A DNA stretch of 43,587 nt. It comes from Escherichia phage K1G. Shown piece by piece: positions 4,345 through 38,425 of the stretch (position 1 is the stretch's first letter; each line of letters begins with the position of its first letter). Position numbers and translations under genes: made by a program. Under the pieces are notes generated by a model, which saw only the letters and a list, made by a program, of their open reading frames with translations, did no database searches and was not told the origin of the DNA. The DNA is taken from sequence record NC_027993.1. The stretch is one strand, 5' to 3'.

Positions 4345-4408
4345 AGTGCCTGTGATTATTCCAGTTATTCCACTCAATTGTAAATGTTGGAATAAACTAT
4401 TCGAATAG

Positions 4409-4437
4409 TTGACTTTTCACCAAAAATGTGCTAAGCT
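4409..4437 (+). promoter_or_regulatory. sigma70-like promoter TTGACT-N17-TAAGCT with TGn extension; -35 overlaps 16-bp perfect palindrome AACTATTCGAATAGTT (4395-4410)
   Basis: hexamers and spacing read directly; -10 is weak (3/6) but preceded by TG. Confidence 0.45.
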
Positions 4438-4617
4438 CCACCTGAGCTTGTGAAGTATGAACAAGCGACCGCGGCGCGGGCAGGTAACGGAGCGGGACGT
4501 AAGTCCTGAGTGTAGTTACGCTGACGCGTTCGGAAGGGCCATAGTCTATCGCTTGTGTAAAAAAGTAACTGGTTTACTGAGATTACGCCGTTTCTATGTT
4601 TAAATGATAAGGACTAG

Positions 4618-4640
4618 CGCCCCGCTTTATGGCGGGGCTT
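4618..4640 (+). promoter_or_regulatory. leader hairpin GCCCCGC-TTTATG-GCGGGGC (possible attenuator or processing site) just upstream of spanin RBS
   Basis: 7-bp GC stem followed by short TTTA; same hairpin in reverse orientation at 36779-36798. Confidence 0.4.
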
Positions 4641-4662
4641 TACTTATCGAGAAAGGAGAAAC

Positions 4663-5049
4663 ATGAATCTTAACGCAACTGTCGTAGCAGGAGCATGTTT
4701 CATCCTCCTGACATACGGCTACGGAATCTACCAGTATCGCAGCGGCTGGAACGAAGGCCGGGCGAATCTCGTTTCGCAGCAACAGCAGAAAGCACAGGCT
4801 GAGTTAGCGAAGAAAACACAACGGCAGCAGCAGGATGAATCAAAGGCCGCAGCCGCTGACAACGAAGGCAAGACGAAATCAGAGGTGATCACACGTGAAG
4901 TCGTTAAGTACATTAAAACGCCTGGTCGCAGCGTGTGCGCTTTTGACCCTGAGCGCGTGCAGCTCAAGTCCCGCGCCGTCGCAAACGCCAATTCCATCCC
5001 CGGATACGACGATGATGCAGCCGCCGTGCAAACTGGCGCCGCCAAGTAG
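4663..5049 (+). CDS. i-spanin (Rz-like)
   Basis: 128 aa; N-terminal TM segment VVAGACFILLTYGYGIY, Gln/Ala-rich coiled-coil periplasmic region; RBS AAGGAG; embedded out-of-frame lipoprotein ORF. Confidence 0.65.
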   Translation: MNLNATVVAGACFILLTYGYGIYQYRSGWNEGRANLVSQQQQKAQAELAKKTQRQQQDESKAAAADNEGKTKSEVITREVVKYIKTPGRSVCAFDPERVQLKSRAVANANSIPGYDDDAAAVQTGAAK

Positions 5050-5158
5050 CGACGCTGACGAGGATTTAGCTGCCGACGTCCGGAACGCCGAATGCGCACG
5101 GCAACTGCGCCTGAAAGTATTCCAGTTGCAGGATTATGTGAGGAATATTCTGGAATAG
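4895..5158 (+). CDS. o-spanin (Rz1-like lipoprotein), GTG start, +1 frame embedded in and extending past i-spanin
   Basis: signal peptide with lipobox LTLSAC, proline-rich mature region; RBS AGAGGTG upstream of GTG. Confidence 0.65.
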   Translation: MKSLSTLKRLVAACALLTLSACSSSPAPSQTPIPSPDTTMMQPPCKLAPPSSDADEDLAADVRNAECARQLRLKVFQLQDYVRNILE

Positions 5159-5240
5159 TTGCCTTGCATGTTGGAATAATTTATTCTTGACATGTAAATC
5201 CGGGTGGCCCGGGTTCCAACGTCCAGGGGACATACTGACT

Positions 5241-5942
5241 ATGAATCGTTTTTTACGTTATCCGTTCCAGGAAGAAGCTGGAGCAGAAGATAAATCAGGC
5301 GGCGGTGACGCACCTAAAATGTACACAGCCGAAGAAGTGCAGGCGCTGATTGAGAAAGAAGTCGCCGGGCTTAAGGCTAACCAGGAAGCATTGCTGAACG
5401 AGAAGAAAGAAGCCGCTCGTAAAGCAAAAGAGGCCGAAGAAGAGCGGCAGCGTGCACACCAGGAGGCCCTGAAAGCCGCCGGTAAGATGGACGAGTTCGA
5501 AAAGACGATTCGTAGCCAGTATGACCCGGTGTTAGCCGAGAAAGATGGTCGCATCTCCAGAATGGCAGAGCGCATCCTCGGCAGCGAACGCAAAGCGGTG
5601 TTAGGTTCTTTCGCGGGTGACTTCATTACCCCGGAAGCAGTAGACATTCTCGCGCCGTTCGTTAAGACTGAGTTTGAAGGTGATGATGTGGTTACTAAGT
5701 TTGTCGGCGCGGATGGCAACGTAGTCACAACTGACCCGGAACAGTTCCGCAAATACCTGCGCGAACATAAAGCGTTTTCGCATTTGATTAAAGCAAATGC
5801 AGCTTCCGGCGGCGGGGCTTCCGGTAGCAAAGGCGGCGGGGCCGCACCAGCGTTTAAAGACATGAGTGAAGCAGAGCGTTTAGCCCTGTATAAATCGAAC
5901 CCTGCCGAATTTGAACGGCAACTTAAAGCCCTGAGGAAATAA
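5241..5942 (+). CDS. scaffolding protein
   Basis: Ala/Glu/Lys-rich coiled-coil protein immediately upstream of major capsid gene; RBS AGGGGA before ATG at 5241 (track ORF begins further upstream at 5187). Confidence 0.55.
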   Translation: MNRFLRYPFQEEAGAEDKSGGGDAPKMYTAEEVQALIEKEVAGLKANQEALLNEKKEAARKAKEAEEERQRAHQEALKAAGKMDEFEKTIRSQYDPVLAEKDGRISRMAERILGSERKAVLGSFAGDFITPEAVDILAPFVKTEFEGDDVVTKFVGADGNVVTTDPEQFRKYLREHKAFSHLIKANAASGGGASGSKGGGAAPAFKDMSEAERLALYKSNPAEFERQLKALRK

Positions 5943-5944
5943 TA

Positions 5945-6994
5945 ATGGCAATTACCACTATCGGCGATATCGTAACTGGCAACATCCCGGTCCTGGCGTC
6001 TTATATGACCGAGGACCCGGTAGAAAAAACCGCGTTCTTCCAGTCTGGTATTCTGACCCCGACTCCGTACGCTGCCGAGATTGCTCGCGGTCCGTCCAAC
6101 GTCGCCAACATTCCTTTCTGGAAAGCGATTGATACTTCTATCGAGCCTAACTACTCGAACGATGTTTATCAGGACATCGCTACCCCGCGTAATGTGCAGA
6201 CTGGCGAGATGATGGCCCGCGTTGCGTACCTGAACGAAGGTTTCGGTCAGGCGGACCTGACTGTCGAACTGACCAGCCAGAACCCTCTGCAATCCGTAGC
6301 GTCCCGTCTGGATAACTTCTGGCAGCGTCAGGCACAACGCCGTCTGATTGCTACCGCGCTCGGTCTGTACAACGACAACGTAGCTGCTACCGATGCTTAC
6401 CATACGCAGAACGATATGGTTATCGACGTGTCCGCTACTCTGGGCTTCGACGCAGGTGCGTTCATCGACGCCACTCAGACTATGGGCGATGCTCTGATGG
6501 GTAACGGTGGTGAGGTGCTGGGCGCTATCGCGATGCACAGCTTCGTTTATGCACAGGCGCGTAAGCAGCAGCTTATCGACTTCATTCGCGACGCTGACAA
6601 CAACACCATGTTTGCTAGCTACCAGGGCTACCGTGTGATTGTTGACGACAGCATGACCGTAGTCGGCACCGGCCCGAGCCGTAAGTTCATCTCCATCATC
6701 TTTGGCAACGGTGCCATCGGTTATGGTGAAGGCAACCCGTCCAACCCGCTGGAATACGAACGTGAAGCGTCCCGCGGCAATGGTGGCGGCGTTGAAACCC
6801 TGTGGACCCGTAAGACCTGGTTGCTGCACCCACTGGGCTACAGCTTCACCAGCGCGGTAATCACCGGCAACGGCACCGAGACTGTCGCCCGCTCCGCTTC
6901 CTGGCAGGACCTGGCGAACGCCTCCAACTGGAACCGTGTGGTTGACCGTAAGCATGTACCGATTGCCTTCCTGGTAACTGGTGTCGGGGCTTAA
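5945..6994 (+). CDS. major capsid protein
   Basis: 349-aa ORF after scaffold, RBS GAGGA, followed by strong terminator; position and size. Confidence 0.7.
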   Translation: MAITTIGDIVTGNIPVLASYMTEDPVEKTAFFQSGILTPTPYAAEIARGPSNVANIPFWKAIDTSIEPNYSNDVYQDIATPRNVQTGEMMARVAYLNEGFGQADLTVELTSQNPLQSVASRLDNFWQRQAQRRLIATALGLYNDNVAATDAYHTQNDMVIDVSATLGFDAGAFIDATQTMGDALMGNGGEVLGAIAMHSFVYAQARKQQLIDFIRDADNNTMFASYQGYRVIVDDSMTVVGTGPSRKFISIIFGNGAIGYGEGNPSNPLEYEREASRGNGGGVETLWTRKTWLLHPLGYSFTSAVITGNGTETVARSASWQDLANASNWNRVVDRKHVPIAFLVTGVGA

Positions 6995-7010
6995 GGTTAA
7001 GATATAATCG

Positions 7011-7037
7011 AGAGGGACTTCGGTCCCTCTTTTCATT
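7011..7037 (+). terminator. rho-independent terminator
   Basis: AGAGGGAC-TTCG-GTCCCTCT hairpin (UUCG tetraloop) followed by TTTCATTT. Confidence 0.7.
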
Positions 7038-7053
7038 TACTAAGAGGTAAATT

Positions 7054-7353
7054 ATGGCTAAGACCGGAAAAGGCTTGCCTCGCAGCCTTCAGAATGTCGA
7101 CTTCGGCGACTTTGACATCCCAGTAACGCCGGCTACTACCAGCGTAGTTGGTGGGGTTAAAAAGTCAGCTACTGTAGCCGCCCCCGCGGCCATTACCGCT
7201 GCCGCCGGGTCGCAGTCCGCTGCGGACCCGACTAAGACCGAGTTCGATGCCCTTGTAGCCGAGTACAACAAACTTCGAACTGATGTAACCGCGCTGCGCA
7301 CTACCGTAGCAAATCTGTTGACTGCGCTTAAAAATGCAGGAACTGTAAGCTAA
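7054..7353 (+). CDS. hypothetical structural protein
   Basis: 99-aa ORF with RBS AAGAGG; in head gene block. Confidence 0.5.
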   Translation: MAKTGKGLPRSLQNVDFGDFDIPVTPATTSVVGGVKKSATVAAPAAITAAAGSQSAADPTKTEFDALVAEYNKLRTDVTALRTTVANLLTALKNAGTVS

Positions 7354-7365
7354 AGGAGCTTAAAA

Positions 7366-7716
7366 ATGGTTGATGTAATCAAACGTCGTATTACTGGTGT
7401 TTCTGATGATTCTCCTGCCGATGGTCAGGTTGAAATCGATATGGCGAATATCTCGCCCGCATCTTTTTCTACCGCACTTGCCGCTACCACTACCAAGTCT
7501 ACGGGGCAGACGATGACCCTTACTGTAGCCGTAATCGGCGGTCTGGCCCCGTACACATACCAGTGGTACAAAGATAACAACGCTATCCCTGGCGCTACCG
7601 CCGCCACCTACGAGAAAACTTCGCTCGCTACTACCGATTCCGGTACGTATAAAGTGGTTGTTCACGATGTGTATGGTAATATTATCTCCAGCAGCACTGT
7701 AGCAACTGTGTCTTAA
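7366..7716 (+). CDS. Ig-like domain protein
   Basis: RBS AAAGGAG; motif APYTYQWYKDNNAI...SGTYKVVV paralogous to C-terminus of 3858..4319. Confidence 0.5.
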   Translation: MVDVIKRRITGVSDDSPADGQVEIDMANISPASFSTALAATTTKSTGQTMTLTVAVIGGLAPYTYQWYKDNNAIPGATAATYEKTSLATTDSGTYKVVVHDVYGNIISSSTVATVS

Positions 7717-7752
7717 TACAACGGCCCTTCGGGGCCGTAATAAGGAAAGGTC

Positions 7753-7932
7753 ATGGCAGATAATTATGTAATCCGCGAAAAGTACACCCACGTTGATATG
7801 GTTGATGGTCAGGTGATACCCGTGCGCGGTGTTGTAGAGGCGGATGAGCTGGTTGCAACCCAACCGGACAGCGAAGAAGCGCACAACAACGGCGGTGGGA
7901 CTAAACGTCGTCGCCGTAAGTCTGAGGAATAG
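7753..7932 (+). CDS. small hypothetical protein (59 aa, below ORF-track cutoff)
   Basis: ATG preceded by AAGGAAAGG RBS and by hairpin ACGGCCC-TTCG-GGGCCGT (7721-7738); basic C-terminus. Confidence 0.4.
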   Translation: MADNYVIREKYTHVDMVDGQVIPVRGVVEADELVATQPDSEEAHNNGGGTKRRRRKSEE

Positions 7933-7986
7933 TAATATCTGGCGTAGTGGTATAATGAATCCATCCTCCATTGAAAAGGGTGAATC

Positions 7987-8736
7987 ATGAACTACGCCAA
8001 AATCTATGAACAGTTAATATCGAACGCAAAAATCAATCCGTTTAGTGGGTATACCGAAAAACATCACATAGTCCCGAAATGCATGGGTGGTGGGGATACT
8101 TTTGACAATATTGTATCTTTGAGCGCTAGACAGCATTTTATTGCGCATTGGCTTCTCTATAAGATACACGGGACTAAAGAACTAGCTTTCGCCTGGAGGG
8201 TTATGTGTATTAACCCTAAAAACAATCAAAGGTCAAAAGTTAACTCACATTCCTTTAAGTTGGCGAAAGAGGCTTGGGCTATAGAGATGTCCAGGTTGAA
8301 TACTGGTGTTAAATTTTCTGATAAACGTATAGAAAATCTCAGACAAGCACATCTAGGGCAAAAGGCGTGGAATAAAGGAATTGCTACCGGGGAAACTGCA
8401 AGTAGAAAAGCCAGAATAGAGCATTACATGGCGAACCCACAACGATGTGTAACATGCGACCAGCCGATCCACTACCGTTTTAAATCACGAGCGCGTAAAT
8501 ATTGCTGCAAGAAATGCCAGTTCGCGGACCCAAATAGAATCGTTGGCAAGGTTAATAGAAAACCTAACTCCGGAAGTTTTAAGAAGGGCCATACGTTAAA
8601 GGGCGAGACTGTCAAGAAAATTTCAGATAAACTTACTGGAATGAAACGCCCGCGCGGGGTATGCCCACATTGCGGAACCGAAGGGGCGCTATCTCTTCTA
8701 AAGAGGTGGCACTTTGATAACTGTAAGAAGGGGTGA
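7987..8736 (+). CDS. HNH endonuclease
   Basis: motif HHIVPKCMGGGDTFDNIVSLSARQHFIAHW (HNH His-Asn-His core) plus C-terminal CxxC pairs; RBS AAAAGGGTG. Confidence 0.8.
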   Translation: MNYAKIYEQLISNAKINPFSGYTEKHHIVPKCMGGGDTFDNIVSLSARQHFIAHWLLYKIHGTKELAFAWRVMCINPKNNQRSKVNSHSFKLAKEAWAIEMSRLNTGVKFSDKRIENLRQAHLGQKAWNKGIATGETASRKARIEHYMANPQRCVTCDQPIHYRFKSRARKYCCKKCQFADPNRIVGKVNRKPNSGSFKKGHTLKGETVKKISDKLTGMKRPRGVCPHCGTEGALSLLKRWHFDNCKKG

Positions 8737-8739
8737 AAA

Positions 8740-9252
8740 GTGTCCTTAACCGTAGAAACAGGTCAAATTATAGAAGGGGCCGATTCGTACATCTCACTGG
8801 CTGACGCCCGCGCGTTAGCGGCTAATTACGGTCTTGAGTTACCTGCCGACGACACTGACGCCGAAGTAGCTCTGCGTAATGGTGCTGCTTATGTCGGGCT
8901 CGCCGAAACGCAGATGTGCGGCCGCCGTGTATCCGCCGAACAGTCTCTGGCGTATCCTCGCACTGGGGTAACGTTAAACGGATTCCCCGTAGCTAACAAC
9001 GTCATCCCGAAGCAGGTAATTCTTGCGCAGGTAATTGCTGCTGTTACCTATGGCGCGGGTACTGAGGTGCGGGCTAACTCAGACGGGCGTTCCGTGCAGA
9101 CTGAGCGTGTCGAGGGTGCGGTGACAGTGACCTACTTCAACAACGGCAACAGCGGGGCTACAACTGCTATTACCGCTGCGGACGACGCTTTACGCCCGTT
9201 ACTGTGTGGCGGTCTTAACAACGGCTTCTCATTTAATGTGTACCGGGGTTAA
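8740..9252 (+). CDS. head-tail connector-region protein (function by position only), GTG start
   Basis: 170-aa ORF between head and tail blocks. Confidence 0.5.
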   Translation: MSLTVETGQIIEGADSYISLADARALAANYGLELPADDTDAEVALRNGAAYVGLAETQMCGRRVSAEQSLAYPRTGVTLNGFPVANNVIPKQVILAQVIAAVTYGAGTEVRANSDGRSVQTERVEGAVTVTYFNNGNSGATTAITAADDALRPLLCGGLNNGFSFNVYRG

Positions 9253-9254
9253 AA

Positions 9255-9701
9255 ATGGCGAAGACTAAAACAGAGATATTTACGCTAATCGGGTCCGAGC
9301 TACCTGACAACACGACCGGGAAAATTACACCAGCTAAATTGCGTGGCGTACTTACGCAGATGGCCGACTCGCCTATTTACACCACTCCTGGGGTGAAAGA
9401 GGTCGAAGTTCTCCGCGCTGCGTCGACCATAGCGCAAGCGCCGACCGCGGTAGATACAGCATTGCAATTAACTTTCGGCTCCGCTAAGGGAAGTGCATCT
9501 GACCCGGTAATGATTAATGCCGCAGGGCTGGTTACGTTCAACACCGCAGGTAACTACGCCGCTCGCATCAAGTTACAGGCGGGGCGTACTGGCGCTAGTG
9601 GGACATCAATCCTGCTATCACGTATTTTAGTAAACGGTGCTCAGTACGGCTCTCCCGCAGCAACTAAGCTGGTAAGCGCGGACGTGACCCATCCCGATTG
9701 A
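9255..9701 (+). CDS. hypothetical structural protein
   Basis: 148-aa ORF; followed by a 260-bp stretch lacking an annotated gene in which the +1 frame stays open. Confidence 0.5.
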   Translation: MAKTKTEIFTLIGSELPDNTTGKITPAKLRGVLTQMADSPIYTTPGVKEVEVLRAASTIAQAPTAVDTALQLTFGSAKGSASDPVMINAAGLVTFNTAGNYAARIKLQAGRTGASGTSILLSRILVNGAQYGSPAATKLVSADVTHPD

Positions 9702-9870
9702 ATCCCGCGTCGTTATTAACCCCGCAGCAGGCCAGACGTTTGCCGTTCAGATTATGCGGGATGGTGCCGGAAGCAACTTCGGCGGCGTGTACCCACAAGC
9801 CGCTACCGTAACAGCATGGGGCACAGCACCGTCCGCGCTACTGGTTATTTCGAGACTGGAGGCCGCTTGA
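9688..9870 (+). other. stop-free +1 frame segment downstream of 9255..9701 (possible frameshifted C-terminal extension, pseudogene fragment or small unannotated gene)
   Basis: 60 sense codons reading ...INPAAGQTFAVQIMRDGAGSNFGGVYPQAATVTAWGTAPSALLVISRLEAA with no RBS-linked start; overlaps upstream stop at CCC GAU UGA. Confidence 0.3.
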
Positions 9871-9964
9871 TGAATAAGTTCACATGTGGTGTAGTTTTTG
9901 GTTTTCTTACCGCGGTAGTCTTGCACAGTTACGGTGTTCTTTTGACGCTGCAAGAGGTGCTAAA

Positions 9965-10324
9965 ATGAGCACCGCTTTCAGTAAACGTATGCAAGGCGTG
10001 GGTACGCGCCTGCTAACCAAATTCGGTAGCACGGTATCTCTGATTCGCGCTGGTTCAAAAGTATGGGATGAAGTTCTCGGTGAGTACGTATGGTCTGACG
10101 ATGAAGTGTTGCCGTTGAAGGCCGTTCCGGTTCCGGTAAACGCGGGACTGGTAAATGGTATGACGATTCAGGCCGGCGACATGATTGTTAAAGCTGATTG
10201 CAGTGTCGTTCCGAAGATGGAAGACAAGGTGCAATTCGGCGGCGAGCAATGGTCCATCGTAGCTATTGAGAAGAAGATGGTTAACGATGACGTCGTGGCG
10301 TACTTTATTCAGGTGAGAAAATGA
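9965..10324 (+). CDS. hypothetical head-tail joining protein
   Basis: ATG at 9965 with RBS GAGGTG; track ORF 9884 extension upstream is not protein-like. Confidence 0.5.
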   Translation: MSTAFSKRMQGVGTRLLTKFGSTVSLIRAGSKVWDEVLGEYVWSDDEVLPLKAVPVPVNAGLVNGMTIQAGDMIVKADCSVVPKMEDKVQFGGEQWSIVAIEKKMVNDDVVAYFIQVRK

Positions 10325-11129: not shown

Positions 11130-11131
11130 AT

Positions 11132-12298: not shown

Positions 12299-12302
12299 AA
12301 CT

Positions 12303-14493: not shown

Positions 14494-14530
14494 GCTTATT
14501 CCTCGTGTTTAGGATTTGTCCTATACTAGC

Positions 14531-14722
14531 TCACTTCTCTTTGACATTCGAGTTGCACGCCCAGATTAAGATAAATACCCACGGCAGCAGAACCCAACCA
14601 AGAAACAGATTAGCCATGAATATCGCTAACTTCGCTTTATGGTTACGGAAGTACGCAACCAGGAAAGGCGCGAAATAAGCGAGCAGTGCAAACAGAATTA
14701 AGGAAACTGGTAAACTGGACAT
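14531..14722 (-). CDS. small 2-TM membrane protein, superinfection-immunity-like (Imm-type motif)
   Basis: 63 aa from ATG 14722 (RBS AAGGGG; track ORF starts 15 nt upstream); motif RNHK...NLFLGWVLLPWVFILIWA recalled as typical of Imm_superinfect family. Confidence 0.5.
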   Translation of the reverse strand: MSSLPVSLILFALLAYFAPFLVAYFRNHKAKLAIFMANLFLGWVLLPWVFILIWACNSNVKEK

Positions 14723-14752
14723 TTTAAACCCCTTCATTGTTGGTGTAAGTGA

Positions 14753-14781
14753 ATAGTACCCTATTATATTGGGGTGTGCAA
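14753..14781 (-). promoter_or_regulatory. early-type promoter TTGCAC-N17-TACTAT (family 2) driving the antisense cassette
   Basis: minus-strand sequence cTTGCACaccccaatataatagggTACTATtcac nearly identical to + strand promoter at 37043; contains AATAG-N4-CTATT. Confidence 0.5.
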
Positions 14782-24824: not shown

Positions 24825-24828
24825 AACT

Positions 24829-27628: not shown

Positions 27629-27913
27629 CTAACTATAATAGCTAGCTATTAGGTCGTCAACCTGTTTAAACGAACCAACGACAAAAACATTCGCACCACG
27701 TTTACGCATCCGCTCATGTTCCCGTAGCTGGTGCGGGTCTGGCTTCGTGTTCTCGTCTTTCTTAACCTCGACGAACCAGACTATGCCGCCGGGGAGAATT
27801 ACCAGCAGGTCTGGGGCGCCGGAACGCCCCTCGTAGGAGAGTTTGCGAACGAGGCCGCCAAGGGCCTCGAATCGGTCTTTTGCGTATTTCTGTACGCGGC
27901 CCTCTTTAGTCAT
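27629..27913 (-). CDS. VRR-NUC domain nuclease
   Basis: PD-(D/E)xK signature GAPDLLV...VEVKK; ATG at 27913 overlaps upstream stop. Confidence 0.6.
   Translation of the reverse strand: MTKEGRVQKYAKDRFEALGGLVRKLSYEGRSGAPDLLVILPGGIVWFVEVKKDENTKPDPHQLREHERMRKRGANVFVVGSFKQVDDLIASYYS
27632..27660 (-). promoter_or_regulatory. early promoter TTGACG-N17-TATAGT (family 1) with 16-bp perfect palindrome TAATAGCTAGCTATTA in spacer
   Basis: read on minus strand: TTGACGacctAATAGCTAGCTATTATAGTT. Confidence 0.6.
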
Positions 27914-28062
27914 GAGCGTAGATCCCAAGTAAGGAAAGCCCCTCCTAGAACGGCGACACCGACAAACTTAAAGAACAGGCCGTAACAGAACATCGCGGCT
28001 ATTCCTGCACCGAGTAGCAGTGCGAGCATGGTTACTATCACCCGAAATACGAACATTGTCAT
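27910..28062 (-). CDS. small membrane protein (50 aa, 2 predicted TM)
   Basis: strong RBS GGGAGGGG 9 nt upstream of ATG; hydrophobic MTMFVFRVIVTMLALLLGAGIAAMF... Confidence 0.4.
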   Translation of the reverse strand: MTMFVFRVIVTMLALLLGAGIAAMFCYGLFFKFVGVAVLGGAFLTWDLRS

Positions 28063-30446: not shown

Positions 30447-30460
30447 TATTTTTGACCCTT

Positions 30461-30486
30461 AGTAAAAAGGCCCAATGAAGGGCCTT
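30461..30486 (-). terminator. rho-independent terminator for leftward transcripts
   Basis: minus-strand AAGGCCC-UUCAUU-GGGCCUU followed by UUUAC. Confidence 0.6.
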
Positions 30487-30505
30487 AGTTAAATTGATTC
30501 AGATA

Positions 30506-31132: not shown

Positions 31133-31185
31133 CGTGATTTCTCGCTTTTCAGTTTACTCCGGGAACTGCCCGGCCAGTGATTAGA

Positions 31186-31214
31186 ACTATAATAGCTAAC
31201 TATTCGGGTGTCAA
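31186..31214 (-). promoter_or_regulatory. early promoter TTGACA-N17-TATAGT (family 1)
   Basis: minus strand TTGACAcccgAATAGTTAGCTATTATAGTT; near-palindromic AATAG-N4-CTATT. Confidence 0.6.
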
Positions 31215-31218
31215 CACT

Positions 31219-32469
31219 TTATTCCAAATCTTCTTCACTAACCTGATTCCACTCAGGACGTTTGTCGTCTGCCGTTGCGACACATGGTGCGCCTGGCTTA
31301 CGGGTAATAAACGGCTCAAGCGCTGCCATCTCATCCGCAGAAAGAACTTTTGCTGCCTCCGTAGGGGACATCAATACCTCTTTTTTGAGAATGTCGCCGT
31401 GTGACACTTCAATCGCATCGGCATCTTTCCACGCACGATTACCCAGGCGGCCTTCTACCAGTTTGTACCCTGGCACTTTATTACCGGAATGCAATGCGGC
31501 GGACATCGCTTTCTCAACCTTGTCGATGTGCTGGCGCAACAGCGGCAACTTCTCATACTCAACTACGAGTTGCTCCGTCGTCAGTTCCAGCACAAAGTCG
31601 TCTTCAAGTTCTTCCGCTAGTACAGAATTAACCGTCTTTGTACGCGCGGCACACTGTTCAGAGAACCGGCACCACTGGCAACCATCGACCGACGGTTTAA
31701 AGTCCGACGCTTTCAGGTTCTTCTTTCCACGGAAATAAGCATCAAGCGCTAACAGTGCCCGTTTCTGTGCGAACTTAGCGAACAGTTCCAGACCTTCGAC
31801 CGAGATGTCCCACTCTGACGCACCCCCCGCGTACGGCTGGAAGATGACCAGGCGCACTACTGTGATGTTATAACGTCTCTTGAGTCGGCGATAAACACCG
31901 AGAGCGTAAAGCATAAGCTGCTTGTTTTCTTTCGCTTCAACACGATGCCGTCCAGTTTTAAGGTCGCCAATAATGAGCATGTGCTCGTCGGTGTTCGCCA
32001 GTTCCTGGACAGCAACGAGGTCAGCCGTTCCGAACGTCTCGACACCTTCATACCCAGGATGCAATACCTCAGTAAGATTGACTCGCATTTCCAGCTTGGC
32101 GTAAGTCGCTACGTCGATAATCGCTTTGCAGTAGTCGGTGTACTTGCGCACCTGCTCAATCATGTCCGCCGTAATCAGTACCGCGCCTTTCATTGGGCTG
32201 ATTAGCGCCTTAATCTGGCCTTTACCTTCATCCAGCACGTAAGCGCCGACTTCACGCTCTAATGGCAGAGCAGTGCCTTTGATGTACTGGTTAAGGTGCA
32301 TCTCCGCTATGGTGTGGCATGCAGTCCCTGTAACGGCGGCTTTACCAGACGTGTTGGGAATATCTTTCTCACAGGCCAGTGATGCACTGCACGCCAGCCA
32401 CTTTTTAGCGCCAGACGGCGACAGTAAGGCGTGCACATCGTTATTGCCGCCGCGTTCCTTTAAAATCAT
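31219..32469 (-). CDS. Cas4/RecB-like PD-(D/E)xK exonuclease (DUF2800-like)
   Basis: N-terminal LLSPSGAKKWLACSA, nuclease motif IIGDLKTG...QLMLYA, C-terminal Cys cluster CQWCRFSEQC; ATG at 32469 with RBS GGGAGAG. Confidence 0.7.
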   Translation of the reverse strand: MILKERGGNNDVHALLSPSGAKKWLACSASLACEKDIPNTSGKAAVTGTACHTIAEMHLNQYIKGTALPLEREVGAYVLDEGKGQIKALISPMKGAVLITADMIEQVRKYTDYCKAIIDVATYAKLEMRVNLTEVLHPGYEGVETFGTADLVAVQELANTDEHMLIIGDLKTGRHRVEAKENKQLMLYALGVYRRLKRRYNITVVRLVIFQPYAGGASEWDISVEGLELFAKFAQKRALLALDAYFRGKKNLKASDFKPSVDGCQWCRFSEQCAARTKTVNSVLAEELEDDFVLELTTEQLVVEYEKLPLLRQHIDKVEKAMSAALHSGNKVPGYKLVEGRLGNRAWKDADAIEVSHGDILKKEVLMSPTEAAKVLSADEMAALEPFITRKPGAPCVATADDKRPEWNQVSEEDLE

Positions 32470-32738
32470 ACCCTGCTCTCCCACTGGTCAATTAAATGTC
32501 GTGTCTTATGGTCGCAGTGCATAGCCCAGCCATACATCGACTCGAAGACGTAAAAGTCCGGTTTGGCGAAAGTCGAGCGCTTAATATGTGACACGTGGCG
32601 GCCTATGTCTTTAGGCCGTGGCACTTTGCCTAAGTACGCCATATCTTCCATCTGGTGTGCACCGGACGGCGCACGCAATAACCATAGTGCCTCTGTGTTA
32701 TCCCGCCGGTCAACGGCGCGGTATAGTTGGTAAATCAT
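32466..32738 (-). CDS. hypothetical protein
   Basis: 90-aa ORF, stop overlaps exonuclease start. Confidence 0.5.
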   Translation of the reverse strand: MIYQLYRAVDRRDNTEALWLLRAPSGAHQMEDMAYLGKVPRPKDIGRHVSHIKRSTFAKPDFYVFESMYGWAMHCDHKTRHLIDQWESRV

Positions 32739-32781
32739 AATCCCGACCCTCAGTTAAAGCGGCCCGAAGGCCGCGGGATAG

Positions 32782-33303
32782 TTATTCTTCTTCGAAATAC
32801 TTGTTCTTGATTGCTGTCAGGCGCTCCAGATACTCAGCCAGGTCTTCGTCTTTAATCGCTGCAATCTTCATCTTCTTACCGGTAAACTCTTCCAGCAGTT
32901 CGTCAGAATCGTCGCACGCGGCATCGCTTGGGCCTTCGTTAATCGCATCGTCGATAGCCTGAATCTGGTCGCGCAGAGACTGGTAATCGACTTCTTCTTT
33001 CTCTTCTTCCGGCTCTGGCGTTGGTTCCTCTACTTTGTCCTTACGCGGCTTGCGCTTCGGCTTCTCTTCTTCTGCTGGTTTAGTGTCGACGATGTCTTCA
33101 CCTTCAACCGGGATTTCTTTCGCCTTCTCGACTTCTTCAAGTGCTTTAGCCAGTTCTTTTTTAACTGTCTCTACCCCAGTTACCGCGACGTCAACAGTCA
33201 ATTCACCTACAGATTTGCTAGTCGGTTGTTTCACACTGTTTGCAGCAATCAGTTCGTGGGCGACTACGAAACGTTCCAGTAATACCAAGAATTTCTCTAA
33301 CAT
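32782..33303 (-). CDS. acidic early protein
   Basis: 173 aa, strongly acidic C-terminal two thirds; strong RBS GAGGAGAG; first gene after promoter 33335-33363. Confidence 0.6.
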   Translation of the reverse strand: MLEKFLVLLERFVVAHELIAANSVKQPTSKSVGELTVDVAVTGVETVKKELAKALEEVEKAKEIPVEGEDIVDTKPAEEEKPKRKPRKDKVEEPTPEPEEEKEEVDYQSLRDQIQAIDDAINEGPSDAACDDSDELLEEFTGKKMKIAAIKDEDLAEYLERLTAIKNKYFEEE

Positions 33304-33334
33304 TTGTTTCTCTCCTCTCGTTTGGTATGGGCTA

Positions 33335-33363
33335 ACTATAATAGCGAACTATTCACTTGTCAA
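33335..33363 (-). promoter_or_regulatory. early promoter TTGACA-N17-TATAGT (family 1)
   Basis: minus strand TTGACAagtgAATAGTTCGCTATTATAGTT. Confidence 0.6.
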
Positions 33364-33427
33364 TGGGCTTTTCTAAAATAATTAATATGGTACTATTCAC
33401 ATATCAACTGACTAAGGAGTAATTGGC

Positions 33428-33643
33428 ATGCAACCATCTGAACTAGGTATCCGTGTAGAGCAACGCCGTAAAGAACTCGGTATCTCCCAGCGCCATCTGG
33501 CTGTCCTGGCCGGTGTTTCCCAAGGCGCGATTAACCAGCTGGCACTTGGGGTAACTCAGGACGTCCGCCCAGCGACGCTGTTTAAACTGGCGGAAGTGCT
33601 GCAAGTAGACGCCAAGTGGCTGGCGTTCGGTGAAGGGGCTTAA
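33428..33643 (+). CDS. XRE/Cro-type HTH transcriptional regulator
   Basis: 71 aa; HTH segment ISQRHLAVLAGVSQGAINQL; RBS AAGGAG; divergent from leftward early operon. Confidence 0.7.
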   Translation: MQPSELGIRVEQRRKELGISQRHLAVLAGVSQGAINQLALGVTQDVRPATLFKLAEVLQVDAKWLAFGEGA

Positions 33644-33660
33644 CGCCCCTTTCTTTTTAT
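33635..33660 (+). terminator. rho-independent terminator
   Basis: GGGGC-TTAAC-GCCCC hairpin followed by TTTCTTTTTAT. Confidence 0.7.
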
Positions 33661-33854
33661 TGCACCTTTATCGGGTATCTTTTGCGAAACTTACCTAACC
33701 CGCAGTATACGCTGTAAGCCTCTGTGTAACTGTACACAACATGATACCCGCGCCCGTAAGGAACTACGTTAAGAACTTCCACTACTTCGCCTCTGTGGTT
33801 GGTGTATTTATTACCTTTAAGTTCGTCGCTTACTTCTTTAAATTTACCGCTCAT
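33657..33854 (-). CDS. hypothetical protein
   Basis: 65-aa ORF, start overlaps primase-helicase stop. Confidence 0.5.
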   Translation of the reverse strand: MSGKFKEVSDELKGNKYTNHRGEVVEVLNVVPYGRGYHVVYSYTEAYSVYCGLGKFRKRYPIKVQ

Positions 33855-36118
33855 TCCAAATCCTCCTCTGTCACTGTCAGCATCTCATTCGGTTCATATA
33901 TTGTCTTCGGAATCTTGTTATCAGTTATCCGGGTGTTCAGCCTGTAACGGCCAGGGATTATCTGATTGTTTTCGTCAGTCCCCGGAACAAGATACCCAGC
34001 CTCAACCATTTTCTTAATCTTCCCGCGTTCTATGGCTTCTTTGGAGTTAAACGCCTTTGCATTGGGGTCAGACTGTGCGAGCTTATTAGCGGCGGCGACT
34101 GTGATGCCTTCGTTGCCGTTGTAGGTTCCTTCCGCCAGTTCAAACGCCGCCAGTATCGTGGCTTCTGAACTGTTGACGGCGTTCTCTATGGTTTTACGTA
34201 CGTTTTCTTTACCTTCTTTCGTCAACCCTTCTTCCCGCTCTTTCTCCTCGTCAGTCTTGAACGGCTCGAAACCCCACGGCATTAACACAAGTGCCTTATG
34301 CGGCTCCGGCAGGTCTAGGTTTACGATTGTGCCGTATTCCTCCGTGCTACCGAGGAACTCAACCGCACGGTACTCTTTCGGCGGCGGCGCTTCACGGAAC
34401 TGTACAGACTCCAGCACCATACCAACCGTCTTCTGTTGAGGCCCGTGCTTGAATTTCGAGTGGTATACATTTATCTGGCGGTCGGTAGCTCGTTCGATTG
34501 TCAGTTCCACGTCGACGCCAGCATACAGCGCCCCACTGCCACGGGCTTTCTTTCCGCCCTTCGGCGTATGGTGGACAACGCCTACCGCAGCTTTAGTCGC
34601 GTCACGTACTTCTTTCAGGATGGCGATAACCTTACCCATGCCGATTGCCGTTGATGAACTGTTCTCGTCGAACTTATCAATCGTCAGGGCTAGCGTCTGG
34701 TTGAGGGTGTCGAACGCAACCATGCCGATGGGTTCGTCACCCGCAGTTTCACGCATCAACTTAATCAGGCTTTTCAGTTTTCCGACTTCGCCCATGTCGA
34801 TGACATGTACATAATCTTTACCTTCCTCGCTATACTTAGCTGCGAGCGCATCGATACGGGTGCGTGTAGCTGCGCCGCCCTCACCGTCGATATAAAAATG
34901 GTGGCAACGCTGCGTATCTGCCCCCGCAAACCGGTATCCGGCGGCGCTCAGGTACATCATCCCCAGCGTATAGAACGATTTGTACGTGCCGGATTCCCCG
35001 ACAATATCCCAGATACAATCTGACGGCATGTACCCTTCAACGACGAAATCCGCCTTTACCGGTTCCGGTAACTCGTCATCCTCTGAGTCCTCGTCATCTT
35101 CCAGGTCGTCGAGGCTGCATGAAACAGATTCACGTGCACCCCATCCGATGGCCTCTGCGACTTCACTGAACGGCAGCCCCGTCGCATCGCACGCATACTT
35201 CCACACCTCTTTCGGTGACATGCCTTCGGTCGCCGTAATGTCAGTGTCGTGAATCATGGTTACGTTCGGCGCCTCATATCCCTCTCGCGGGAAGCACAGC
35301 AGGAAGTCATCCGGGCGCGGCGTCGGGTCGCTGTAGTTTTCTGCGTGTTCTGGCGTAGCTGGCATCTTAAGGCCTCGTGGCGTCATGATACCGCCATACT
35401 CGAACGCCAGTGCCTCGAACGCGTCGGTAAACGCGGTGCGCAGTTCTTCCGGTATCTGGTAATCCGATGCGCTGCTAACGTCAACGGCGGGGATGCCTTC
35501 CAGTAACTCGTCCGGGTCAATCAGGTCGTTGCGGCGTGACCAGATAACGGTAGAGCCAACCGGAGGCAGGTACATCGGTTGCGAAAGAGTGAACCCGCTG
35601 CGGTCAGCACCCATGCTTTTGAAGAAGTGTTCCAGCAATCCATGGCGAACACGGATGATGTCACCACCTTCGACCGGACGGGCCAGCGGCATGACGACGC
35701 GAAAGCGCGGGGACTCGTCGGTATGTGATGCCGTGGTATAGATACACATGCCCCGGCGGCTGCGTTTAACTAAGCGCACCGCTTCCTGATACTCTTCTGG
35801 TGTTGCGCTGTCGAAGTCCAGATACGCCAGCGACGATTTGCTTACAGACGCGTCACAGCGATAGAAAAAGCCTTTACGCGCTTGCTTAAAGTCGCCGGTT
35901 TCCGGGTCTTTTACAGTGCTGTGCGTCGAGTCGCACGCGGCGGTGATATAACCGGGCGCGGTCTTCGGGTTAATTCCGTCACGGACAGCATCGAGTGGCT
36001 GGATTAACTCTTTCAGGTCGTCCAGTGTTGCCGTGTGTGTGGTTCTGACGTTTATATCCTTTTTCTCAGCCCGCGCGTTGCGACGCGACCACGAGTAGGA
36101 TAAAATTACATCGGACAT
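33851..36118 (-). CDS. DNA primase/helicase (RecA-fold ATPase)
   Basis: 755 aa; Walker A-like GESGTYKSF, large N-terminal domain; RBS GAAGGAAA. Confidence 0.7.
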   Translation of the reverse strand: MSDVILSYSWSRRNARAEKKDINVRTTHTATLDDLKELIQPLDAVRDGINPKTAPGYITAACDSTHSTVKDPETGDFKQARKGFFYRCDASVSKSSLAYLDFDSATPEEYQEAVRLVKRSRRGMCIYTTASHTDESPRFRVVMPLARPVEGGDIIRVRHGLLEHFFKSMGADRSGFTLSQPMYLPPVGSTVIWSRRNDLIDPDELLEGIPAVDVSSASDYQIPEELRTAFTDAFEALAFEYGGIMTPRGLKMPATPEHAENYSDPTPRPDDFLLCFPREGYEAPNVTMIHDTDITATEGMSPKEVWKYACDATGLPFSEVAEAIGWGARESVSCSLDDLEDDEDSEDDELPEPVKADFVVEGYMPSDCIWDIVGESGTYKSFYTLGMMYLSAAGYRFAGADTQRCHHFYIDGEGGAATRTRIDALAAKYSEEGKDYVHVIDMGEVGKLKSLIKLMRETAGDEPIGMVAFDTLNQTLALTIDKFDENSSSTAIGMGKVIAILKEVRDATKAAVGVVHHTPKGGKKARGSGALYAGVDVELTIERATDRQINVYHSKFKHGPQQKTVGMVLESVQFREAPPPKEYRAVEFLGSTEEYGTIVNLDLPEPHKALVLMPWGFEPFKTDEEKEREEGLTKEGKENVRKTIENAVNSSEATILAAFELAEGTYNGNEGITVAAANKLAQSDPNAKAFNSKEAIERGKIKKMVEAGYLVPGTDENNQIIPGRYRLNTRITDNKIPKTIYEPNEMLTVTEEDLE

Positions 36119-36176
36119 GTTATATTTCCTTCAGCAAGTAATTTGGCCTCGGCGTTCACCGCGTCGGGGCTTTCTT

Positions 36177-36452
36177 TTATTCCAGGTCGCGGGAGATATT
36201 ACCCTCGGGCACCAACACTTTTCCAATACTTCTCGCTTTCTCTGTAATAGGCGTCGCTCTTGTTGCCCGATAAAACTTTCCTTTATTAAGAATCTCACCA
36301 TGTCGCTCGAGCACATCTAAAGCATGTTTGATCGGGTTTACACCGTAATTATCCAACCGGTATCTCCGAAGCCCGTCTACCGTAAAAGCGCCGTTCGCTT
36401 CGGTCAGTCTGCGTGCACACATTAATATGTGTTTCTGGAATTTAGTTAGCAT
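36177..36452 (-). CDS. hypothetical protein
   Basis: ATG at 36452 with RBS AAGGAG; overlaps 3' end of upstream HTH gene. Confidence 0.45.
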   Translation of the reverse strand: MLTKFQKHILMCARRLTEANGAFTVDGLRRYRLDNYGVNPIKHALDVLERHGEILNKGKFYRATRATPITEKARSIGKVLVPEGNISRDLE

Positions 36453-36621
36453 CTTTAACGTTCTCCTTAATCCACGCCTCCACAGTAGCGCGGTCAAAGG
36501 TACCTGGCTGACGGTAGCCGTTGATAACGCGGCAACACTCCGGGAACTTTCCTGACCGAAGCCAGCGATTAAGAGTCATAGGGGAAACCCCGATTAAGTC
36601 TGCTACTTCTTTCTGTGTCAT
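36442..36621 (-). CDS. AlpA/Xis-like HTH DNA-binding protein
   Basis: MTQKEVADLIGVSPMTLNRWLRSGKFP; ATG at 36621 with RBS GAGGG (track ORF begins at TTG 36651). Confidence 0.6.
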   Translation of the reverse strand: MTQKEVADLIGVSPMTLNRWLRSGKFPECCRVINGYRQPGTFDRATVEAWIKENVKDAN

Positions 36622-36778
36622 TTTACGCGCCCTCTCTATCAAGTGAAACAACTATAACACCTACAATAGACAAACACAACCTATTGACAAAATAAAATGT
36701 AGCTGTAAAATCAACGTATCGAATGGCTTTAGTTAAGAATTACTTAGAAACAATATTCTTAAGTCTCGGGTACTTAAA

Positions 36779-36798
36779 GCCCCGCCATAAAGCGGGGC
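36779..36798 (-). promoter_or_regulatory. leader hairpin, reverse-orientation copy of the 4618-4637 hairpin
   Basis: GCCCCGC-CATAAA-GCGGGGC on + strand equals reverse complement of the spanin leader hairpin. Confidence 0.35.
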
Positions 36799-37042
36799 GC
36801 TAAATAGTACTCTTGGTAACGTTAGTATCTAAGTTTCCTCAAAGTAACAGCAAGTGGCAAGAAAGCCCCCGTCTATTTAAATTTTACCCTCCTTCATAAG
36901 CCACTGATAATTAAAAGTTTCTATAGTTGCCGTAAACGTGGAAGAGAGTACTTCACTTCGCTGGGGTGGGCTAACGCCCACCCACTGCGTTGCGTACTCT
37001 TTTAAGAAACGAAAGAATCACAACGGCAACGTAACTATTCTC

Positions 37043-37071
37043 TTGCACACCCCAACATAATAGGATACTAT
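37043..37071 (+). promoter_or_regulatory. early promoter TTGCAC-N17-TACTAT (family 2)
   Basis: cTTGCACaccccaacatAATAGGATACTATTcac. Confidence 0.5.
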
Positions 37072-37096
37072 TCACTTATCGAAACGAGACAGAGGA

Positions 37097-37297
37097 GTGA
37101 GGGTTATGTTTAAACGTGGTCAGTTGGTTAAATACTCCGACGATAAACACGGCATAATTGAATTAAAATCTGCTTTATTTCCAGGAAAGTACGTAGTTAC
37201 CGTGCAAAATGTGAGAGGAGTAAATTCACAAATATACGTAGCGGAGGAGAACTTAAAACTCATCGGCAACAATTTTAAATTTAAAGGGGGAGGGTGA
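37097..37297 (+). CDS. hypothetical early protein
   Basis: 66 aa, RBS GAGGAGTGAGGG. Confidence 0.5.
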   Translation: MRVMFKRGQLVKYSDDKHGIIELKSALFPGKYVVTVQNVRGVNSQIYVAEENLKLIGNNFKFKGGG

Positions 37298-37301
37298 AGT
37301 G

Positions 37302-37502
37302 ATGGAAGAATTATTTGAAGAACTGAAACATCATGATTTCGAGGAAATATATTTCGTAGCTGAACGCTACGAGGTGCATCTGGCGGACGGTATAACGGTT
37401 ATTACATCTACCAGCGAGCGAATGTTAAATAGCTTACGAGCAATACGAACGGCATCGAATCATGATGCTTGTGCCGACGACGCTGAGGGAGGTTGCCGTT
37501 AA
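37302..37502 (+). CDS. hypothetical early protein
   Basis: 66 aa from ATG 37302, RBS GGGGGAGGG. Confidence 0.5.
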   Translation: MEELFEELKHHDFEEIYFVAERYEVHLADGITVITSTSERMLNSLRAIRTASNHDACADDAEGGCR

Positions 37503-37705
37503 TGCGAATCCGTATAACTGACCGCAGGCTTATCCGTATAACTGACCGCAGGCTTATCCGTATAACTGACCGCAGGCTTATAGATTTCGGTATCTCGGTA
37601 GGTGATGTTTTTCCGGCGTTCAGCATCAACCATTATGGTTTTATGATTGAGTACAAAGGGTCGTTATTGTTCGTGTATCGGGATGAATGTGAGGTTCTGG
37701 TATGA
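37502..37705 (+). CDS. small protein containing three RITDRRLI repeats
   Basis: ATG overlaps upstream stop (TAATG), RBS GAGGGAGG; 3 x 24 bp tandem repeat is in frame. Confidence 0.4.
   Translation: MRIRITDRRLIRITDRRLIRITDRRLIDFGISVGDVFPAFSINHYGFMIEYKGSLLFVYRDECEVLV
37510..37581 (+). repeat. perfect tandem direct repeat, 3 x 24 bp (CCGTATAACTGACCGCAGGCTTAT)
   Basis: three identical consecutive 24-mers read directly. Confidence 0.9.
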
Positions 37706-37857
37706 GAGAAGCATTTGAACGGTGGGCTGTGGTCGAGGGTCTGCCGGTTAACAAGGGTTCAAAGAAAGAGTACCTGAACGTTAAGACGCGTCTCGCGTGG
37801 CGGGCGTGGAAAGCTGGTGTGCAATCCTTGATTGAAAGAGGTGTGAGGTATGGGTGA
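37702..37857 (+). CDS. small hypothetical protein (51 aa)
   Basis: ATGA overlap with upstream gene; sequence MREAFERWAVVEGLPVNKGSKKEYLNVKTRLAWRAWKAG... Confidence 0.4.
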   Translation: MREAFERWAVVEGLPVNKGSKKEYLNVKTRLAWRAWKAGVQSLIERGVRYG

Positions 37858-38050
37858 GTGGATTAAGTGTAGTGAGATGCTGCCGGGTAATGGGTATACG
37901 GATAAAGAGTTCCTGGTGTATGAAACGTTAAATAACGCAGTTCAGCACGATTATTACATAGTTCCTGATGACGGGAGAAAGCCTTTCTGGAATCACTACG
38001 ATAAGTACGTGACGCACTGGATGCCGTTACCCGAGCCGCCAGAAGTGTGA
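37850..38050 (+). CDS. DUF551-like protein
   Basis: N-terminus MGEWIKCSEMLPGNG resembles DUF551 proteins (W-I...LP motif). Confidence 0.5.
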   Translation: MGEWIKCSEMLPGNGYTDKEFLVYETLNNAVQHDYYIVPDDGRKPFWNHYDKYVTHWMPLPEPPEV

Positions 38051-38184
38051 TGTTCAATAGTTTGGGATTTTACTGAGTGACTTACGCTGCTACACAGCAG
38101 CGTACAACTTTAACTTAGTGTCGTCAAAAGGCGACACTTTCATCAAACGCAACAATCGAAGCGACTATTGCAGGAGATGCAACA

Positions 38185-38358
38185 ATGATTACTAAAGAAC
38201 AGGCTGAACGACTAATCACGTTAATCGACACGATGGTTGATGCGAAAACCGATTTAGCAACGGCAACAGAGGAATCCGCTACCTGGTCGCTTGAAGAAAG
38301 AGAAGCAGAAGCGGAAAGGGAGTTACTGGCGTTCATCGACTCTATAACACACCAATAA
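38185..38358 (+). CDS. small acidic hypothetical protein (57 aa)
   Basis: RBS AGGAG 10 nt upstream of ATG. Confidence 0.45.
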   Translation: MITKEQAERLITLIDTMVDAKTDLATATEESATWSLEEREAEAERELLAFIDSITHQ

Positions 38359-38365
38359 AATTTAC

Positions 38366-38394
38366 TTGCACACTAAGATAGAATAGGCTACTAT
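38366..38394 (+). promoter_or_regulatory. early promoter TTGCAC-N17-TACTAT (family 2)
   Basis: cTTGCACactaagatagAATAGGCTACTATTcat. Confidence 0.5.
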
Positions 38395-38425
38395 TCATTT
38401 ACACAAACGAGAGGAGAGACGGAAG

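Follow-up and report, generated by a model that had tools for sequence, protein, structure and literature searches.

Genome context

Escherichia phage K1G (sequence record NC_027993.1) is a virulent, K1-capsule-specific siphophage of E. coli belonging to the K1G-like Kagunavirus (Guernseyvirinae), and the 43,587 nucleotides analysed here, called the window throughout, make up its complete or nearly complete genome. Our subject is the inverted repeat AATAG-N4-CTATT that recurs along this genome on predicted promoters, together with the gene of a 71-amino-acid (aa) Cro-like protein (33428..33643, plus strand) that lies beside two copies of the repeat and is its probable partner. About 90% of the window is coding and its gene order agrees with that of the annotated relatives, from which we take the layout of the genome. 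The structural genes run on the plus strand from 1 to ~24.8 kb and are interrupted at 12.3-14.7 kb by a leftward Imm/phosphoesterase operon; the operons for replication and recombination, likewise leftward, occupy 25-36.6 kb, and rightward small-gene clusters with the lysis genes 37-43.6 kb. The early region is 97.5% identical to that of phage K1H, and 449 Kagunavirus and Jerseyvirus records match the window. For the comparisons we used a Kagunavirus set of 39 sequences (37 fetched loci, phage Schulenburg and the window), to which 11 Jerseyvirus, 4 Cornellvirus-type and 7 more distant loci were added.

A recurrent dyad in the window

Exact copies of AATAG-N4-CTATT were found at six places (starting at 14752, 27637, 31191, 33340, 37059 and 38382), all of them already listed in an earlier examination of the letters without database searches (the sequence-only reading), whose expected number of 0.04 was also reproduced by dinucleotide shuffling; 0 of 100 shuffles reached six. 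Among all possible 5-mer dyads with a gap between 0 and 10, compared in an unbiased scan, this one ranked first in the window, the only other recurrent dyads being G+C-rich terminator hairpins. Allowing one mismatch gave nine copies against 1.24 expected, the additions being at 4404, 33384 and 40925, while two mismatches gave 23 matches against ~16 expected, which we consider background because their number is near expectation and most of them are coding. All nine copies with zero or one mismatch are non-coding or at the end of a gene, so that a scan of the whole window, coding regions included, does not find the motif equally frequent inside genes. The placement in promoter-bearing intergenic regions that had been proposed stands as far as the promoters are concerned, the copies falling on a -10, a spacer or a -35, but the copy at 27637 lies within the last 22 nucleotides of the open reading frame (ORF) 27629-27928 and is therefore not strictly intergenic.

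A seventh copy had been claimed at 4395-4410, and this one we do not retain. Its arms are everted (CTATT-CG-AATAG), which is a different arrangement, and it is not conserved: we saw it in the window and in Schulenburg, while two of the four relatives that cover the region (L020 and L027) have unrelated sequence there with the promoter core kept. Together with an overlapping one-mismatch copy, AATAGTTGACTTTT (4404-4417), it spans 4395..4417 on the plus strand at the -35 (TTGACT) of a late promoter, and it is probably not a functional operator. Better additional copies are those at 33384 and 40925, both conserved with nine of the ten arm positions.

Promoter architecture of the individual sites

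Promoters were predicted from sequence and dyad centres were computed assuming that the -10 hexamer spans -12 to -7. The sites fall into two classes. In class 1, which is always leftward, the arrangement is TTGAC(A/G)-N4/5-AATAG-N4-CTAT followed directly by TATAGT, in such a way that the spacer is taken up by the dyad, whose last base is at the same time the first of the -10 and whose centre lies near -18.5. The copy that we call O1 (33340..33353, minus strand) occupies the spacer of TTGACA(33363-33358)-17-TATAGT(33340-33335), a predicted promoter driving leftward an acidic 173-aa protein, a 90-aa ORF and the exonuclease operon. At 31191..31204 (minus) the spacer belongs to TTGACA(31214-31209)-17-TATAGT(31191-31186), upstream of a DUF2815/SSB-like gene and the DNA polymerase operon. 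The third, at 27637..27650 (minus), lies in TTGACG(27660-27655)-17-TATAGT(27637-27632), a promoter contained in the 3'-terminal part of the VRR-NUC ORF and driving a 63-aa ORF, a methyltransferase and the SNF2 helicase operon; it extends to a perfect palindrome of 16 bp, TAATAGCTAGCTATTA, as had been noticed before. The three class-1 promoters score 10-11 of 12 in a sigma-70 scan.

Class 2 reads TTGCAC-N10-AATAGGNTACTATT, with the -10 TACTAT inside the right arm and the dyad centre near -12.5. It includes two exact rightward copies, 37059..37072 (plus; -10 at 37066-37071, -35 TTGCAC at 37043-37048) and 38382..38395 (plus; -10 at 38389-38394, -35 TTGCAC at 38366-38371), whose promoters, both read by eye, are predicted to drive the small early genes 37097-38050 and the small genes 38426-39532 respectively. 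A leftward exact copy, 14752..14765 (minus; TTGCAC 14781-14776, TACTAT 14758-14753), is on the predicted promoter of the Imm-like superinfection-immunity/phosphoesterase operon inside the structural module and has orthologous sites in Schulenburg (15289) and SETP3 (15245). First in the operon is the ORF 14531-14737 (minus), whose product is homologous to the superinfection immunity protein of the T4 type (Pfam Imm_superinfect, E=9e-13). The fourth member, O2 (33384..33397, plus, AATATGGTACTATT), has nine of the ten positions and sits on the predicted own promoter of the Cro-like gene, with the -10 TACTAT at 33391-33396 and no good -35; its single mismatch (G to T) makes the TG of an extended -10 at 33388-33389. 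The centres of O2 and O1 are 44 bp apart, and the O2 sequence, mismatch included, is invariant in 37 loci. It is also the element listed as PP5 in Table S2 of the sister phage fBC-Eco01 (PMC9825357).

The weak copy at 40925..40938 (plus, ACTAGTTGACTATT, nine of ten) belongs to neither class. It overlaps the -35 of TTGACT(40930)-17-TATATT(40958), a promoter that also scores 10-11 of 12 in the sigma-70 scan, and its centre is near -33.5. The promoter, placed after the T-run of a terminator, precedes the small genes of the rightmost cluster and those of the terminase. The site is kept at nine of ten in all Kagunavirus loci and is also found in Jerseyvirus with the mismatch in the other arm, although its function as an operator is uncertain.

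Two other readings of these elements were discarded. For class 2 the -10 might instead be NATAAT, with its end in the left arm, but a -35 to go with it exists only at 14752, and this was rejected as a general architecture. A role as hairpin or terminator is excluded by folding energies of -0.9 to -3.5 kcal/mol, with z near 0 at five of the six sites, and by the position of the sites upstream of the predicted start sites.

Conservation of the dyad

We located orthologous promoters through anchors placed downstream, with neither the dyad nor the -10 included in them. Among the 39 Kagunavirus sequences the dyad is exact at 161 of 169 such promoters: 39/39 at O1, 35/35 at 37059, 33/35 at 31191, 31/34 at 27637 and 23/26 at 38382. 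Counted over alignment cells, the deviation from the consensus is 0.5-0.6% in the arms, against 10.6% in the N4, 8.5% in the ten bases upstream and 5.5% in the ten downstream, that is, the arms are 10-20 times more conserved than the centre and the flanks, and the left arm is as invariant as the right one. Insertions or deletions of one nucleotide occur between the -35 and the dyad and never between the dyad and the -10. The -10 hexamer starts at dyad position 8, 11 or 14 depending on the site, and even at the orthologous Imm promoter it starts at position 8 in K1G and 11 in SETP3. Because its register against the -10 varies, the dyad is an element in its own right rather than a component of some fixed promoter consensus, and recognition by sigma-70 cannot explain a left arm that is invariant at varying positions with respect to the polymerase contacts.

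The same dyad came out on top of de novo rankings in the Kagunavirus Schulenburg (7 copies) and in the Jerseyvirus SETP3 (5 copies, in the extended form TAATAG-N4-CTATTA), and almost without exception in the 37 Kagunavirus and 11 Jerseyvirus loci, being tied or second in the two with the lowest counts. A de novo dyad scan did not find the exact form in the Cornellvirus Shemara, and it is absent as well from the 4 Cornellvirus-type and 7 more distant loci. At the equivalent promoters Cornellvirus has TATTAG-N4-(C/G)TAATA, both arms having changed together, with a -10 TAATAT instead of TATTAT. The relaxed family TAWTAS-N4-STAWTA occurs there three times against 0.02 expected; a clean replacement by ATTAG-N4-CTAAT was considered and dropped, with no exact and three one-mismatch copies, the true pattern being the looser one with hybrid class-1 sites. 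This pattern of conservation is the signature of a dyad-symmetric protein-binding site, and the element is very probably a protein operator. The proposal that a dimeric DNA-binding protein is involved thus remains the best-supported reading, on account of the conserved arms, the shifting register, the symmetric change in Cornellvirus and the association with temperate phages described below.

In seven other Kagunavirus loci an exact dyad (e.g. AATAGGTTACTATT) is found after GGTGTAACAGG direct repeats and before a hairpin (gtgacttacgctgct...), with no promoter nearby. Its counterpart in the window (38056-38069) has decayed to AATAGTTTGGGATT. This is the one context that does not fit the picture of a promoter operator.

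The recurrence itself is already in print. In fBC-Eco01 seven 20-mers (PP1-PP7, consensus tgAATAGTa-ccTATTat-T) were labelled 'Phage RNAP promoter' from the output of PHIRE (PMC9825357), and they are the same sequence elements at orthologous positions. That the motif is the most repeated conserved 14-20-mer would suit a promoter for a phage-encoded RNA polymerase, yet PHIRE detects repeated sequences and not the specificity of a polymerase, and the motif is dyad-symmetric, occurs in both orientations and takes three registers against near-consensus sigma-70 hexamers, always with a -35 of the TTGACA or TTGCAC type 17-18 bp from the -10. Furthermore, Pfam searches of the window ORFs of at least 376 aa (which gave tape-measure, endosialidase, DNA pol A, AAA_25, SNF2, phosphoesterase and tail-tube proteins) and the annotations of five related genomes contain no RNA polymerase. 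Since no such polymerase is encoded the published label is wrong, and we regard this interpretation as effectively refuted, with hardly any chance of being right.

Another possibility is that no dedicated regulator exists, the motif being a duplicated promoter cassette kept for promoter strength or else the target of a host protein. The right arm is indeed part of the -10 in class 2 and abuts it in class 1, and the flanks of the promoters are well conserved too. But the position of the left arm with respect to the -10 differs between the classes and it is nonetheless as invariant as the right arm, the N4 and the linker drift while the arms do not, and both arms change together in Cornellvirus. 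A host factor is difficult to reconcile with Jerseyvirus and Cornellvirus sharing the host Salmonella and having different dyads, and the same dyad family stands beside homologous helix-turn-helix (HTH) genes in unrelated phages of other composition. We consider both versions of this explanation very unlikely.

The Cro-like protein as candidate binder

The gene at 33428..33643 lies in a divergent promoter region, between the exact O1 and the nine-of-ten O2, and is followed by a terminator-like hairpin (33632-33652). Its product has a Pfam HTH_3 domain (PF01381, E=9.7e-12, 45 bits against a cut-off of 23), belongs to the XRE family and falls in PHROG transcriptional repressor families. The best PDB match by sequence is 434 Cro, aligned end to end (E=5e-7), followed by the 434 repressor and P22 c2. 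An AlphaFold2 model with a predicted local distance difference test (pLDDT) value of 89.6 has five helices (5-17, 21-28, 32-40, 48-57 and 62-67), and its top PDB matches by Foldseek are 2cro (template modelling, TM, score 0.82/0.89), 1pra and 3jxb. Within Kagunavirus the identity of the protein is 93-99% with one exception (L042, 77%), and its recognition helix, GVSQGAINQLALG, is almost invariant even there; the helix is near-invariant within each genus.

The association of the protein family with the dyad family extends to temperate phages. In six independent loci of temperate type (L057, L059-L062 and L064), retrieved solely through homology to the Cro-like protein, we found 14 copies of A[AT]TAG-N4-CTA[AT]T in 84 kb against ~0.12 expected, and 7 of the 14 are at most 200 nucleotides upstream of the homologue of the Cro-like gene, between divergent HTH genes. 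One of these pairs, in L060, is confirmed as of cI type: a repressor combining HTH_3 and Peptidase_S24 is encoded divergently from a small HTH protein. Where further partners were examined, they proved to be HTH_3 proteins. Of the two proteins of such a region, one carries a SQGxIxQ helix, like K1G, and the other a TQSAISH/Q helix, like Jerseyvirus and Cornellvirus, so that both types of helix go with one and the same family of operators. The half-sites are different in controls with different helices: 434 (QQSIQL) and a Klebsiella phage homologue (QQTIQQ) have ACAA-type operators of 14 bp, and a Moraxella phage homologue (SQPSYGD) has AAAGG-N4-CCTTT. Judged from these sequences, the family keeps the 5-N4-5 layout throughout, with half-sites that follow the recognition helix, and the association in temperate loci is in our opinion the decisive result pointing to the Cro-like protein as the candidate binder.

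Two candidates had been put forward by the sequence-only reading. The first, the Cro-like protein, gains support from its HTH_3 domain and match to 434 Cro, from the dyads that flank its gene and from those of the temperate loci. The second is the product of 36442..36651 (minus strand, true start probably M11), which belongs to Pfam HTH_17 (AlpA/excisionase/MerR-like) and could act on the dyad as a repressor or as a factor loaded at promoters, as AlpA of P. aeruginosa is. Its distribution speaks for it, the protein occurring only in the two genera that have the exact dyad, Kagunavirus and Jerseyvirus, and being missing from Cornellvirus; however, this match is a single contrast at the level of clades, and Cornellvirus has a related dyad without the protein. 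No dyad is found near the promoter of its own gene, and the protein varies, with identities of 60-100% within the genus, recognition helix included, while the dyad is invariant. Moreover, L027 with six dyads and L020 with three have no HTH_17-like ORF by tblastn and hidden Markov model searches, which is a strong argument though not an absolute one in view of both being partial contigs. The second candidate is thus disfavoured, and we give it a very low probability. We also considered the mismatch of recognition helices between genera as evidence for HTH_17 over the Cro-like protein; this was overturned by L027, L020, the near-constant Cro-like helix inside each genus and the temperate loci.

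At the head of the helicase-primase operon of L027 (12559-13144), and also in L020, the HTH_17 gene and its neighbour are swapped for a 149-aa protein and a 47-aa zinc-ribbon-like protein with a CxxC...CxxC pattern.

Several points weigh against the assignment of the dyad to the Cro-like protein. All the fetched loci were retrieved through this very protein, so that its universal presence among them is by construction. The helices QGAINQ of Kagunavirus and QSLITH of Jerseyvirus differ at four positions and are found with the same core dyad (K1G QGAINQL and SETP3 QSLITHL share it, the latter being closer to QSAISHL of Shemara); this objection is softened, not removed, by both helix types sharing operator sets in temperate loci and by flanks that are specific to each genus. 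In Jerseyvirus, the sites nearest the gene are imperfect, with nine of ten positions at O1 and eight of ten at the own promoter. Finally, the class-2 promoters (TTGCAC-17-TACTAT) score 7 of 12, below the threshold of the sigma-70 scan, and their assignment comes from reading and conservation, TTGCAC and the 17-bp spacing being invariant in 54 distinct contexts.

A proposed repression circuit

Taking this evidence together, we consider it probable that AATAG-N4-CTATT is the 14-bp operator of the 71-aa Cro-like protein, which as a dimer similar to 434 Cro would exclude the host RNA polymerase and turn down the early, replication and Imm promoters. The operators span the core of what appear to be sigma-70-type promoters read by the host enzyme, and since the dyad fills the spacer in class 1 and one of its arms forms the -10 in class 2, occupancy should exclude the polymerase. 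As the protein accumulates after infection, the early small-gene clusters, the three replication and recombination operons and the Imm operon would be turned down, and its own promoter, with a conserved but weakened operator, would be repressed more weakly and last. The placement and conservation of the dyad, the family and fold of the protein and the association of this protein family with this dyad family are computational results; binding, the dimeric stoichiometry, the repressive direction and the timing are inferred. The coordination of early transcription on both strands that the sequence-only reading envisaged agrees with the gene content of the controlled operons, its timing and direction being the inferred part.

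The operator might also belong to another phage protein, or the Cro-like protein might be an activator or a dual regulator, for example at the weak late sites that overlap a -35. Many small ORFs are uncharacterised, and the conserved nine-of-ten sites overlap the -35 of the promoter that leads to the terminase. On the other side, no other DNA-binding domain was detected among the neighbours tested, and the strong sites overlap the -10 or the spacer of promoters with the optimal spacing of 17-18 bp, a geometry that predicts occlusion. No activation surface is known in 71-aa proteins of the Cro type. These alternatives appear unlikely, though they keep some weight, and repression by the Cro-like protein is the reading that we follow below.

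No S24-peptidase repressor or integrase was found among the window ORFs or in the annotations of the relatives, and for this reason we describe the circuit as Cro-only rather than as an immunity switch.

Neighbouring sequence features

No counterpart of the regulatory region was found at the DNA level in E. coli prophages among 5,426 genomes, the only hit being a CRISPR spacer. In NZ_AP025214.2, an E. coli chromosome, the 33 nucleotides at 4038667-4038699, inside an annotated CRISPR, are 100% identical to 33359-33391 of the window and thus make up a naturally occurring spacer directed at this group of phages.

The 33340 operator is followed first by 32782-33303 (minus), the gene of the very acidic, E/D-rich 173-aa protein mentioned above. 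Pfam gives no domain for this protein and its PHROG has no assigned function; across the three genera it is conserved with 49-99% identity. Between 36652 and 37058 there is a gene-free gap of 400 bp with a near-consensus rightward promoter (TTGACA-16-TAAAAT, 36684-36711) and, 3' of it, two G+C-rich hairpins (36779-36799 and 36960-36983). The gap may encode a small non-coding RNA or a leader; no known RNA family of Rfam was found in the window, this gap included. A G+C-rich hairpin, AAGGCCCC-N4-GGGGCCTT, is present in four copies at operon boundaries (7070, 12303, 24829 and 30467), reads as a terminator on both strands and is also kept in Schulenburg, SETP3 and Shemara.

Significance

In the literature searched (Jerseyvirinae and Kagunavirus promoters, MB78, Guernseyvirinae and Cro) there is nothing on regulation through this dyad beyond the PHIRE label, so that the recurrence of the motif is already published under a wrong interpretation and its link to the Cro-like protein appears to be new. 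The proposed mechanism is textbook repression of the Cro type and contains no new principle; it will be useful for annotation and will not surprise the specialist. Kagunavirus and Jerseyvirus phages are, however, widely isolated for therapy and food biocontrol, where 'repressor' genes are screened as a safety criterion, and the XRE/Cro-like gene appears to be a regulator of the lytic cycle with a regulon of ~8 promoters and not a lysogeny function. For phage EcoPhCCP1 the authors report that no repressor genes were detected (PMC12919940), yet one protein of that genome, under the annotation hypothetical, shares 97% identity with the Cro-like regulator, a case indicating that safety screens based on annotation miss or misread this gene. 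The system also offers a concrete prediction for the early-to-late transcription programme in a group without transcriptomic data, and a compact repressor-operator pair with naturally repressible promoters for a small siphophage chassis in synthetic biology.

A more far-reaching idea, which we think distinctly improbable, is that the switch of these strictly virulent phages is what is left, 'Cro-only', of a temperate immunity switch, with an operator specificity shared with extant temperate cI repressors. Were this true, the eight promoters of an incoming virulent Kagunavirus or Jerseyvirus could be silenced by a prophage already resident in the host and specific for A[AT]TAG-N4-CTA[AT]T, providing repressor-mediated immunity against a lytic phage, and conversely the Cro-like protein of the phage could interfere with such prophages. 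It would also bear on the observation that, for some Kagunaviruses, plating on E. coli K-12 requires a strain cured of its cryptic prophages, although nothing links both yet.

Comparison with known systems

With respect to lambda Cro the likeness would be functional only. In the proposed logic, a small early repressor lowers early promoters during lytic growth, as lambda Cro does with PL and PR, and represses itself weakly, but lambda Cro has another fold and operators of 17 bp. The temperate loci L057, L059-L062 and L064 also resemble the K1G system: their proteins are of one family with the K1G protein (36-44% identity), the types of helix recur, and dyads of this family again lie between divergent HTH genes; they differ in having pairs of divergent HTH genes, clustered operators and a predominance of ATTAG half-sites. 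No experimental characterisation of their immunity regions was found in the literature searched.

Another known system close to that of K1G is 434. Its Cro is likewise a 71-aa, five-helix HTH_3 protein, with 40% identity and a TM score of 0.82-0.89 to the K1G protein, and its operators are also of 14 bp, 5-N4-5 with a free centre (OR1-3, read from locus L068: ACAAGAAAGTTTGT, ACAAGATACATTGT and ACAAGAAAAACTGT). In both cases the operators overlap divergent promoters beside the gene, and the A at the outermost base and the Gln at the first position of the helix are kept. In contrast, the half-site is AATAG in K1G and ACAAG in 434, and the helix is QGAINQ in the former and QQSIQL in the latter. 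The K1G operators are single sites at no fewer than seven promoters over 26 kb and on both strands, while those of 434 are two clusters of three, as cooperative triplets. In addition, the K1G-like phage is virulent and, in the window ORFs and relatives' annotations already mentioned, lacks the partner cI, the S24 peptidase and the integrase; with no cleavable cI partner and no lysogeny functions, it does not have a complete lambdoid immunity switch (cI, Cro and OR/OL). Nevertheless it shares the HTH_3 domain, the five-helix fold, a dyad of ~14 bp with a variable centre, operators on the promoters that adjoin the gene and the pairing of similar helices with similar operators, and by these features the K1G system belongs to the 434-type Cro/CI family of HTH proteins and operators.

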